Shown here one piece after another: positions 22 to 597 of a stretch of DNA of 597 nt; positions within the stretch are counted from its first letter, which is position 1, and every line of letters begins with the position of its first letter. The stretch lies in the NCBI RefSeq assembly GCF_003334255.1, contig NZ_QOWU01000216.1; one strand, written 5' to 3'. Position numbers and translations under genes: made by a program. The stretch is from Escherichia coli. GTDB lineage: Bacteria > Pseudomonadota > Gammaproteobacteria > Enterobacterales > Enterobacteriaceae. Under the pieces are notes generated by a model. That model was not told the origin of the DNA and did not search any database. It was given only the letters and a program-made list of their open reading frames with translations.

Positions 22-48
22 GAAAAAACAAAACCCGCCGAAGCGGGT
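22..48 (-). terminator. Rho-independent terminator of the hok mRNA
   Basis: Minus-strand reading is ACCCGC-TTCG-GCGGGT followed directly by TTTTGTTTTTT: a 6-bp GC-rich stem (33-38 pairing 43-48), a UUCG tetraloop and a U-tract. It sits 69 nt downstream of the hok stop. There is no T-run on the plus-strand side, so it looks unidirectional. Confidence 0.85.
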
Positions 49-49
49 T

Positions 50-68
50 AAGTGCGGGTGCGTTGAGG
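50..68 (-). promoter_or_regulatory. 3' fold-back (fbi-like) element of the hok mRNA, complementary to the 5' leader element at 431-448
   Basis: Plus-strand 50-68 AAGTGCGGGTGCGTTGAGG versus the reverse complement of 431-448, GACTGCGGGTGCTTGAGG: an 8-nt plus 6-nt perfect match separated by one extra G, with one further mismatch at the edge. In the mRNA this lets the extreme 5' end pair with the region just upstream of the terminator, as the tac/fbi interaction does in R1 hok mRNA (established knowledge; the assignment here is inference). Confidence 0.5.
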
Positions 69-117
69 ATGCCTGACACATCAGAGGTGGCGAGGGATTT
101 CTCCCCCGCCAGGTCTC

Positions 118-273
118 TTACTCCTCAGGTTCGTAAGCTGTGAAGACAGCGACCTCCGTCTGGCCGGTTCGGATTCGTACCTCGCAGAGGTCTTTCCTCG
201 TTACCAGTGCCGTCACTATGACGGTTAAACAGATGACGATCAGGGCGATTAACATCGCCTTTTGCTGCTTCAT
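118..273 (-). CDS. hokD: Hok/Gef family type I toxin (small membrane-depolarising peptide), HokD/RelF-like, 51 aa
   Basis: Minus-strand ORF from ATG (complement of 271-273) to TAA (complement of 118-120), 156 nt. Translation: MKQQKAMLIALIVICLTVIVTALVTRKDLCEVRIRTGQTEVAVFTAYEPEE. It has a single hydrophobic transmembrane segment and a conserved Cys-containing TRKDLCEV core, as in Hok/Gef proteins. It matches my memory of E. coli HokD (RelF) and is close to, but distinct from, HokC (Gef). Paralogue naming is from recollection and the context differs from K-12 hokD. An AGGAG Shine-Dalgarno lies 9 nt upstream. Confidence 0.93.
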   Translation of the reverse strand: MKQQKAMLIALIVICLTVIVTALVTRKDLCEVRIRTGQTEVAVFTAYEPEE

Positions 274-329
274 AGCCTGCTTCTCCTTGACCTTTCGGTC
301 CGTAAGAGGCTAATCTCTATGTGTCGCAT
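270..329 (-). CDS. mok-like leader ORF (19 codons), translationally coupled to hok through an ATGA start/stop overlap
   Basis: Minus-strand ATG (complement of 327-329) is preceded by GAGG with an 8-nt spacer. Translation: MRHIEISLLRTERSRRSRL, ending in a TGA (complement of 270-272) that overlaps the hok ATG. It starts 56 nt upstream of hok, at the position where mok starts in hok/sok loci, but in the +1 frame. The frame in phase with hok is closed by a TAG 13 codons upstream of the hok ATG. Whether the peptide is made is untested. Confidence 0.45.
   Translation of the reverse strand: MRHIEISLLRTERSRRSRL
283..287 (-). promoter_or_regulatory. Shine-Dalgarno sequence of hok (AGGAG)
   Basis: Minus-strand AAGGAGAAGCAGGCT-ATG; AGGAG with a 9-nt spacer to the hok ATG. 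Confidence 0.7.
287..316 (+). promoter_or_regulatory. Candidate sigma70 promoter for the Sok-like antisense RNA
   Basis: Plus-strand TTGACC (287-292), 18-bp spacer, TAATCT (311-316); predicted start near 322-324. The -35 overlaps the hok Shine-Dalgarno on the opposite strand. The -10 matches consensus only at T1, A2 and T6, so this rests largely on position. Confidence 0.45.
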
Positions 330-380
330 AGATATGGCCTCAGATTAATGTTAAGCGTCTTGCAGGACGCGTAATGTTAA
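322..380 (+). ncRNA. sok: Sok-like antisense RNA antitoxin (type I), boundaries approximate
   Basis: A plus-strand transcript from about 322 would be exactly antisense to the Shine-Dalgarno and AUG of the mok-like ORF (complement of 327-341). It ends in a stem-loop, GCGTC-TTGCAG-GACGC (355-370), extendable to an imperfect stem over 345-380. Size (about 55-65 nt) and position relative to the mok start fit known Sok RNAs. The 3' end is uncertain (378 to about 392) because no clean U-tract follows the stem. Confidence 0.5.
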
Positions 381-393
381 CTGGGGCTTTTCT

Positions 394-430
394 CTATCTG
401 CCTTTTGGTGTTCATGCCTGAGACAGATAG
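394..430 (-). repeat. Inverted repeat (hairpin) in the hok mRNA 5' leader
   Basis: Plus-strand CTATCTG (394-400) and CAGATAG (424-430) are perfect reverse complements, extendable to about 10 bp with one G-U pair, with a 17-nt loop. It lies immediately 3' of the leader element at 431-448 in the mRNA and may belong to the leader's regulatory fold. Confidence 0.4.
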
Positions 431-448
431 CCTCAAGCACCCGCAGTC
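431..448 (-). promoter_or_regulatory. 5' leader (tac-like) element of the hok mRNA, complementary to the 3' element at 50-68
   Basis: See the feature at 50-68. It sits directly downstream of the predicted -10, that is, at the extreme 5' end of the predicted transcript. Confidence 0.5.
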
Positions 449-476
449 ATTCTACTTAACTAAGATTTCCCCGCAA
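449..476 (-). promoter_or_regulatory. Candidate sigma70 promoter of the hok mRNA
   Basis: Minus-strand TTGCGG (complement of 471-476), 16-bp spacer, TAGAAT (complement of 449-454), with an A-rich stretch upstream. The predicted start near 441-443 gives a leader of about 113 nt to the mok-like AUG and about 169 nt to the hok AUG, similar to R1 hok mRNA. The complementary 5' element begins right at the predicted start. Confidence 0.4.
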
Positions 477-597
477 ACCGTTTTTGTCCGGCACAGTAAA
501 TATCCAACTAAACCAATGGCGTTCGCTGTATTTACCGCCAGTATTCAATGCACATGACCGCCATGAACACCCCTAAAAAAAGGGCATTTATATATCC

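Follow-up and report, generated by a model that had tools for sequence, protein, structure and literature searches.

Type I toxins usually have a single transmembrane helix and are accompanied by an antisense RNA, and class II holins have two transmembrane helices. In Escherichia coli K-12, hokA, hokC and hokE are chromosomal hok loci associated with insertion sequences (IS elements). The locus described here is another chromosomal hok homolog, carried on a 597-nucleotide stretch of E. coli DNA that we refer to throughout as ‘the window’; positions are counted from its first letter, and coordinates beyond 597 refer to the extended sequence to its right. [quoted passage not shown] Among described systems, the locus is best set beside hokD of the Qin prophage of K-12 (relF, of the relB-relE-hokD operon). 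The two loci encode identical HokD proteins (WP_000813254.1) and share the genes that follow downstream: rem, ydfU/DUF968 and a Q-like antiterminator. They differ in what precedes hok. The K-12 sequence matches the window only at 24–287 (98.9%), and lacks everything to the right of position 287, that is, the hok leader and Sok region, the hok promoter and the small open reading frame, ‘ORF59’, that is the main subject of this analysis; relE-relB-ydfV-flxA are found there instead.

As judged from its sequence, the window is a complete, intact hokD/sok-type module on the minus strand, with a leader, a promoter (recognized by its position) and a terminator. The hokD coding sequence (118..273, minus strand; 51 amino acids) appears in the list of open reading frames, and the protein is annotated as hokD, WP_000813254.1, in the strains EC958, H10407 and K-12. 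The hok mRNA leader, including the Sok target region (271..442, minus strand), matches the Rfam model RF01794 over its full length with 106.7 bits (E = 2.9e-25), against a gathering score of 59. The putative hok promoter (449..476, minus strand) consists of a −35 hexamer, TTGCGG (476..471), a 16-nt spacer and a −10 hexamer, TAGAAT (454..449), with +1 near 442. We infer this from position: the hexamers are correctly placed with respect to the start of the leader (position 1 of the Rfam model falls at 442), yet they fall short of the consensus threshold set in the promoter scan. At the other end, the intrinsic terminator of the hok transcript (32..49, minus strand), AACCCGCTTCGGCGGGTT followed by a T-run, is the sole terminator-like site on the minus strand from the nin genes to rem. 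A sub-threshold isrK-like Rfam match lies on the 3' end of hok, outside the flank discussed below.

Exact (100%) matches to the window occur in the chromosomes of many E. coli strains, including the ST131 strain EC958 and the ETEC strain H10407. Of 5,426 complete genomes, 4,956 have some match, which in 1,849 extends over 80% of the window or more. An earlier, sequence-only reading of the window had considered it too short to identify what it is inserted into, and rightly so; it took extension on both sides to show that the host element, in EC958 and H10407 alike, is a Qin-like lambdoid prophage. In EC958, the window maps to 12001–12597 of locus L001. It lies between the replication/nin genes and rem-ydfU-rusA-Q, with everything on the minus strand, where the order is Q-type antiterminator, rusA, DUF968/ydfU, a rem-like gene, hokD, an unannotated gap of ~600 bp, small nin-region genes, replication genes and cro. 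Farther to the right of cro come a cI-type repressor, dicB, an exonuclease, and an integrase adjoining tRNA-Ser/mtfA. ORF59, hok and all of the neighboring phage genes share a single orientation, and genes for a holin and a lysozyme are found ~5 kb from ORF59. The annotation shows neither an IS nor a transposase for 12 kb on either side of the module in EC958, and for 8 kb on either side in H10407. The prophage that holds the module is itself a mobile element, though the module is not IS-flanked in the window-matching genome. The earlier contention that no IS element lies beside the module in this genome is thus borne out to ±12 kb in EC958, and the hokD/sok locus is intact where K-12 retains only 24–287.

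Elsewhere, the same locus is interrupted. The strains EC11 and 789, and the phage PhiR42_1, match the window from 597 to 272. In PhiR42_1, a segment of 3,273 bp follows position 272, and the hok coding sequence resumes at 287; the segment contains a split ISNCY-family transposase, flxA, ydfV, relB and relE. In EC11 and 789, for which the comparison covers the left (272) junction, a remnant of the ISNCY transposase lies next to the hok leader, the position that ISNCY also has in PhiR42_1. On either side of the insert in PhiR42_1 stands a perfect direct repeat of 15 bp, GGAGAAGCAGGCTAT (repeat D10; 15 nt, 100% identical). At 272..287 in the window, as (A)GGAGAAGCAGGCTAT, this comprises the hok Shine–Dalgarno sequence and the first two bases of the ATG, and it is duplicated on both sides of the insert; K-12 has the hok-side copy only. 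Because the repeat-finding tool detected no terminal inverted repeats in the 3.3-kb, relBE-carrying insert (a 10/13 match found by eye is weak), it would be unsafe to take the 15-bp duplication for a target-site duplication. Among 80 sampled phage contigs that carry ORF59, 46 are contiguous through hok, and in 28 homology with the window ends at ~270, the same place as the characterized insert of ISNCY and flxA-ydfV-relBE (window 272/287), in the K-12-type arrangement. The window is the uninterrupted state of the locus, from which the relBE-hokD arrangement of K-12 derives. Like hokA, hokC and hokE of K-12, then, it is a chromosomal hok homolog, and one that in other strains carries an ISNCY remnant beside its leader. 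It differs from them in the nature of the interruption, which in those other strains is an IS with cargo, lodged between leader and coding sequence and accompanied by a 15-bp duplication, rather than an IS downstream.

The right flank of the module, 477–597, departs from what had been supposed. The sequence-only reading described this flank as free of recognizable coding sequence and regarded the module as embedded in intergenic DNA. As an account of the letters within the window, much of this holds. The frames in 477–597 are short (30–50 amino acids, TTG-started, at 456..548 on the minus strand, and at 484..576 and 405..557 on the plus strand), and none is a complete ORF of note. A hairpin does occur at 571–586, in the letters given for it, CCCTAAAAAAAGGGCA. 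The flank is richer in AT than the rest of the window (GC 43% in 477–597 versus 50% in 1–476), and 477 is a sensible left boundary, just upstream of the hok promoter, with the leader match beginning at 442 and the hexamers at 454..449 and 476..471. Rfam, searched with the window and the 2 kb around it, returned no family in the flank. What fails is the denial of coding sequence. The minus-strand frame 597..532 is open to the edge of the window, and the extended sequence reveals it as the 3' part of a longer frame, a 59-codon ORF that has a strong Shine–Dalgarno sequence. The intergenic interpretation survives in part: IS elements are indeed absent from the flanks, but plain intergenic DNA this is not, for a probable gene, ORF59, runs through 532–597, and only 477–531 (~55 bp) is non-coding.

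ORF59 extends from 711 to 532 on the minus strand. Its start codon, the ATG at 711, lies beyond the right edge of the window, and is preceded at a distance of 4 nt by AGGAGG (tAGGAGGaata); some alleles have AGGGGG instead, and maintain the pairing by means of a G·U wobble. Inside the window (532..597, minus strand) are the last 21 codons (39–59), GYINALFLGVFMAVMCIEYWR, and the TAA stop codon (534..532). The complete product is MKNALQFLFVAFWLFVSCMPIIFTARYMEKVDVLILIFGYINALFLGVFMAVMCIEYWR. Between the stop codon and the −35 region of hok lies the non-coding spacer (477..531, minus strand), part of which could join with the last codons of ORF59 in an imperfect hairpin (~538..491). The flank is probably, then, the 3'-terminal third of a small membrane-protein gene that RefSeq does not annotate (532–597), followed by a 55-bp spacer in front of the hok promoter (477–531). 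With a probability that we put at about four in five, the whole reads as follows: 532–597 is the 3' end of ORF59, which codes for a small, two-helix, inner-membrane hairpin protein; 477–531 is a spacer; and both belong to a Qin-like prophage.

Hydropathy analysis of the ORF59 product reveals two hydrophobic segments. AlphaFold2 predicts helices at residues 2–24 and 31–58 with a short loop between them (mean pLDDT 73), and the chain ends 1–3 residues past the second helix, with no charged tail. The product looks, on this prediction, like a two-helix membrane hairpin protein. The gene occupies an AT-rich island, with a GC content of 36.7% in ORF59 and 30.8% in the 120 bp upstream, against 46–55% in the neighbors. 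The ORF59/flank segment is present in 1,570 of 5,426 complete genomes (~29% of complete E. coli genomes), and 158 IMG/VR stretches encode a relative. Its presence varies: it occurs in some related prophages and is absent from others, and in other hokD prophages its slot is taken by unrelated sequence. Annotation is uneven. PGAP/RefSeq does not call ORF59; various GenBank submissions label it ‘hypothetical protein’, ‘putative membrane protein’ or ‘membrane protein’; and two phage records, ON470612 and ON470619, annotate the opposite strand, as ‘hornerin’.

Length alone is no evidence that ORF59 is real, since 11% of shuffles of the AT-rich island contain an ATG-ORF of at least 59 amino acids. 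The flank might be ordinary non-coding intergenic DNA and ORF59 a chance frame within it, AT- and T-rich DNA naturally giving rise to hydrophobic residues. Besides the frequency of such frames in shuffled DNA, the lack of a RefSeq annotation and of a family match fits that view, as does the lack of any promoter found for ORF59 itself. Polymorphism within the lineage can be read in the same way. Six sites segregate in ORF59, one synonymous and five non-synonymous, at a density (3.3 per 100 nt) barely under that of the flanks (4.5–5.0), and because of this 1:5 ratio and near-flank density, recent purifying selection within the ORF59 lineage cannot be demonstrated from the six sites, which are too few for a useful dN/dS within the lineage. 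The non-synonymous changes are all conservative (V/A, M/I, V/I, I/M and Y/H), and the variants I37M and Y40H switch to the residues of a paralog. It is comparison with this paralog that tells against non-coding DNA. When 1.84 billion representative proteins were searched exhaustively with HMMER for relatives of ORF59, the result was, besides near-identical copies, a homolog that is also of 59 amino acids and aligns from end to end with 41% identity; all of the matches are E. coli/Shigella-type sequences, and the divergent lineages number two only, both E. coli/Shigella. The two genes have the same start, stop and length, and their 180 nt align gap-free, with 59% of the nucleotides identical. 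Their homologous flanks, in contrast, are rich in indels, with seven gap events in ~165 columns upstream and a 3-nt gap after the stop. Differences are distributed 25/17/31 over the three codon positions, and 14 of the 24 identical residues are specified by different codons. By the Nei–Gojobori method, pN is 0.33 and pS 0.71, giving a dN/dS of 0.19–0.23, a rough value since dS is near saturation. In neutral simulations with the same number of random substitutions, the frame stays open in 2.6% of cases and the observed amino acid identity is reached in 0.56%. The frame of ORF59 is the only one of six that is open in both copies. Nineteen residues are invariant in both lineages (including W13, S17-C18, P20-I21-I22, G39, N42-A43-L44, E56, W58 and R59), and the frame is intact in all 46 full-length phage-contig copies, while indels occur in the 89-bp spacer and promoter of three of them. 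The strong AGGAGG 4 nt in front of the ATG, with AGGGGG alleles that still pair, tells against a chance frame as well. It is because of the paralog comparison—no indels, pN below pS, and one frame alone open in both copies—that we judge ORF59 probably to be a genuine protein-coding gene, and purely non-coding DNA to be an unlikely description of the flank.

Two further explanations assign the signal in this DNA to something other than ORF59. One is that the functional element of 477–597 is a nucleic acid structure, with the hairpins at 571–586 and 491–538 serving as a terminator or attenuator, as an insulator of the hok promoter against read-through, or as a place where the RNA is processed or stabilized. 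On the transcribed strand, the z-scores of the two hairpins are −3.1 and −2.3. The first (571..586; CCCT-A7-GGG) reads AAUGCCCUU-UUUUU-AGGGGUGUU in the mRNA, within the ORF59 codons N42-A43-L44-F45-L46-G47, spelled AAU-GCC-CUU-UUU-UUA-GGG. It had been called weak, which is correct for the plus strand (−4.5 kcal/mol, z −1.6) but not for the transcribed minus strand, where it forms nine pairs, G·U included (−9.2 kcal/mol, z −3.1). No other 28-nt window of the ORF59 mRNA is as stable; in the paralog, too, stability peaks at these codons, and there a U-rich run comes after the hairpin, which the scan flags as terminator-like. The register of pairing differs between the paralogs, however, so that the helix is not homologous, and no U-tract follows the hairpin of ORF59, which the terminator scan misses and the global fold of the ORF59 mRNA does not retain. 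As a terminator it is ruled out, then, by the missing U-tract, its place inside a run of codons and the other register in the paralog; we take it for a by-product of the codons GCC-CUU-UUU-UUA-GGG, not for a signal. The second hairpin (~538..491) is imperfect and spans the stop codon (−19.2 kcal/mol, z −2.3). It too has no U-tract after it, and in the paralog 7 of its 21 pairs are broken and the fold of the paralog’s own sequence has a z of −0.5; a conserved 3'-UTR hairpin is ruled out by this lack of preservation. With no Rfam match to either, and with a coding function compatible in any case with structure in the mRNA, we regard both hairpins as unexplained minor features rather than as the function of the flank, and find a structural element distinctly improbable as the explanation of 477–597. 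The other explanation is that the real gene lies on the opposite strand, as the 85-amino acid ‘hornerin’ ORF (window 548..805, plus strand). This is the longest ATG-ORF of the island as well as the one annotated in ON470612 and ON470619. Its frame, however, contains two stop codons in the paralog, no Shine–Dalgarno sequence precedes its ATG, and it is opposed to the orientation of every neighboring gene. Its wobble positions coincide with those of ORF59, and it behaves as a shadow ORF, because the least-variable codon position between the two copies (17 differences) is position 2 of ORF59 and position 1 of ‘hornerin’. The likelihood that it is the gene is close to nil, and the stops in the paralog and the want of a Shine–Dalgarno sequence rule it out.

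The paralog has its place in the Rac attachment region, flanked by ttcA and uspF. It occurs in 1,045 of the 5,426 complete genomes, or ~19% of those of E. coli, and there it, too, goes unannotated. P0037/P0038 were considered as possibly deriving from a distant genus or from a degraded symbiont genome, and this was ruled out; they are this second E. coli locus at ttcA–uspF. The paralog is surrounded by a ~1.3-kb remnant in which an integrase is truncated and a permease gene frameshifted. Some 55 nt past the stop codon of the paralog lies the degraded C-terminal half of a hok gene, VTKKDLHQVRI*GGQMEV. Homology with the window at this locus runs from 588 to 494 and then jumps to 205..112; therefore, the ancestor had the same order, ORF and then hok, and a deletion took the hok promoter, the leader and the N-terminal half. 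The adjacency of ORF59 and hok is thus old but not obligatory, because the paralog survives without a functional hok and because many hokD loci have unrelated sequence upstream. In other prophage and plasmid hokD cassettes, homology with the window stops at 461/462, 485 or 489/490. These alternative flanks have unrelated, mini-hydrophobic ORFs of their own just upstream of hok (best PHROG E-value 0.005, none significant). Such ORFs, recurring upstream of hok in other flank types, might suggest a recurrent functional pairing.

How might ORF59 work? We propose that it would be transcribed within the rightward early (pR/nin) transcript, and possibly also from a weak promoter of its own. The genes share a single orientation, and from the nin genes onward no terminator-like site occurs before that of hok. 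Translation would start at the ATG at 711, by virtue of the strong Shine–Dalgarno sequence. The product would be inserted into the inner membrane with both termini inside (N-in/C-in) and the loop (residues 25–30) in the periplasm, a topology proposed because the N-termini are positive (K2; R2-K3 in the paralog) and the loop of the paralog is acidic. There, it may act as an accessory, moron-like phage cargo protein. A more specific role can be imagined, in which ORF59 and its paralog form a family of small membrane proteins with two helices, which accompanies hok and serves the lysogen in its own right, by modulating the action of Hok or the integrity of the membrane, or as an exclusion factor. 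This is compatible with what we see, because both lineages have the order ORF-then-hok and because the paralog is the sole intact frame of the decayed remnant at ttcA–uspF, but we consider it rather unlikely. Searches for external support were empty. No convincing sigma-70 promoter was found upstream of ORF59 or the paralog by a consensus-only scan, which weak signals could escape, and the counts at the paralog locus were at chance; a consensus scan found no terminator-like site flanking ORF59. Family and structure searches with ORF59 (PHROGs, NCBIfam, Pfam, PADLOC, a profile search of the PDB, and Foldseek against viral structures) gave no significant match, PADLOC matched neither ORF59 nor the paralog to an anti-phage defense family, and no papers on the ORF59 peptide sequences were found in the searchable literature.

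If ORF59 is the gene that we take it for, the picture of the hokD locus is corrected: the upstream neighbor of hok is a gene, and the true non-coding spacer in front of the hok promoter is ~55 bp. A small membrane-protein family, with lineages in ~29% and ~19% of complete E. coli genomes, would have been missed by standard annotation, or placed on the wrong strand, a typical example of the annotation blind spot for small proteins. The uninterrupted reference state should help in interpreting the regulation of hokD or the phenotypes of relBE deletions. Interest in the family would be higher still if ORF59 were to interact functionally with Hok, or proved to be domesticated at the ttcA site.

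Among known proteins, three groups invite comparison with ORF59. Hydrophobic type I toxins (e.g. Hok, TisB and Ldr) and class II holins/pinholins fall in a similar range of sizes and are likewise strongly hydrophobic in composition, and two helices are a feature that ORF59 shares with the class II holins. Unlike those holins, ORF59 lacks a charged C-terminal tail, sits outside the lysis cassette and matches no holin family; and unlike the type I toxins, it matches no toxin family, and evidence for an antisense RNA was not found with Rfam. The small membrane proteins encoded by phage morons and in early/nin regions are the third group. ORF59 differs from them in that neither a promoter nor a terminator belonging to it could be demonstrated, nor any homology to the phage families described so far. 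They resemble it in being specified by short genes of atypical GC content and variable presence, situated between conserved phage genes, and in having a predicted membrane product. ORF59 is, in these respects, a new member of a familiar kind: the small membrane proteins borne by prophages.

The 59-codon reading frame upstream of hok, ORF59, has an intact paralog of 59 aa (41% identity), located between ttcA and uspF in what is left of a decayed prophage. This paralog is found in 1,045 of 5,426 complete E. coli genomes (e.g. strain PAR, L013 7130–7309; also L010 829–1008 and L011 6001–6204), and is without annotation in RefSeq. In strain PAR it is followed by a C-terminal fragment of hok that contains an in-frame stop (L013 7364–7429). 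The same codons, approximately 40–48, hold the most stable local mRNA hairpin in both ORF59 (window 565–592) and the paralog (L013 7251–7269), with different pairings. The hairpin in the paralog is followed by GGUUUUUAUU and was flagged as terminator-like; it lies within the ORF. In EC958 (L001 12882–13198, ∼285–600 bp to the right of the window end) and in H10407, ORF59 has a frameshifted pseudogene upstream of it; strains SCU-125 and 222 have this gene intact, coding for a hypothetical protein of 171–204 aa (L008 1855–2370; L004 1855–2469). Close to its lysis cassette, the EC958 prophage also carries two cargo genes on the opposite strand: iss (increased serum survival lipoprotein; L001 5070–5363) and a gene for an IraM-like anti-adapter (L001 7776–8111).

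Two genes called on the plus strand are questionable. The strand opposite ORF59 is annotated ‘hornerin’ in phage records ON470612 and ON470619 (window 548–597, continuing to 805; L003 6555–6806). We rejected this frame as a gene, since it is interrupted by stops in the ORF59 paralog and is not preceded by a Shine–Dalgarno (SD) sequence; the call is probably a shadow-ORF misannotation. WP_001112736.1, a 59-aa ‘hypothetical protein’ to which some phage records give the name ‘mobile element protein’, begins ∼103 bp to the left of the window and ends at window position 76 (L001 11897–12076). Its ORF is opposite to, and overlaps, a rem-like gene and the hok terminator region, and its standing as a gene looks doubtful. 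On the minus strand, window 28–109, which spans the 3′ end of the hok mRNA and the terminator, gave an Rfam match to isrK that is sub-threshold, at 27 bits where the gathering score is 50 (E = 7e-4).

When the hokD cassette of the window is compared with the cassettes of other prophages and plasmids, homology repeatedly ends at the same positions: 24, 30/31, 46, 56 and 94 on the left, and 461/462, 485 and 489/490 on the right. The right-hand mosaic boundary falls inside the hok promoter or just upstream of it. In hokD prophages whose upstream flank differs, the ORFs that lie closest on the hok strand, just ahead of the hok promoter, encode unrelated mini-hydrophobic peptides of 25–34 aa that form two small families (minus strand; L016 2074..1985; L017 2123..2019 and 2317..2165; L018 2039..1959). 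One of these ORFs is annotated (WP_001278454.1), and none gave a significant match in a PHROG search.

Of the 80 phage contigs with ORF59 that were sampled, 28 lose homology to the window at ∼270. In phage PhiR42_1, the hok leader and the hok coding sequence are split apart by a segment of 3,273 bp (L014 994–4266) that contains a split ISNCY transposase, flxA, ydfV, relB and relE. This insert is bracketed by a perfect 15-bp direct repeat (L014 979–993 and 4268–4282; window 272–287) comprising the hok SD and the AT of the ATG; no terminal inverted repeats were detected for it. The left junction, at 272, is common to EC11 and 789, where an ISNCY transposase remnant adjoins it (L006/L007 1295), and the Qin prophage of K-12 (L015) retains the hok-side junction only (window 24–287). 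Integration of relBE beside hokD has been published already (Ramisetty & Santhosh 2016, as cited in PMC6379469), and the 15-bp repeat, together with the IS association, may refine that account.
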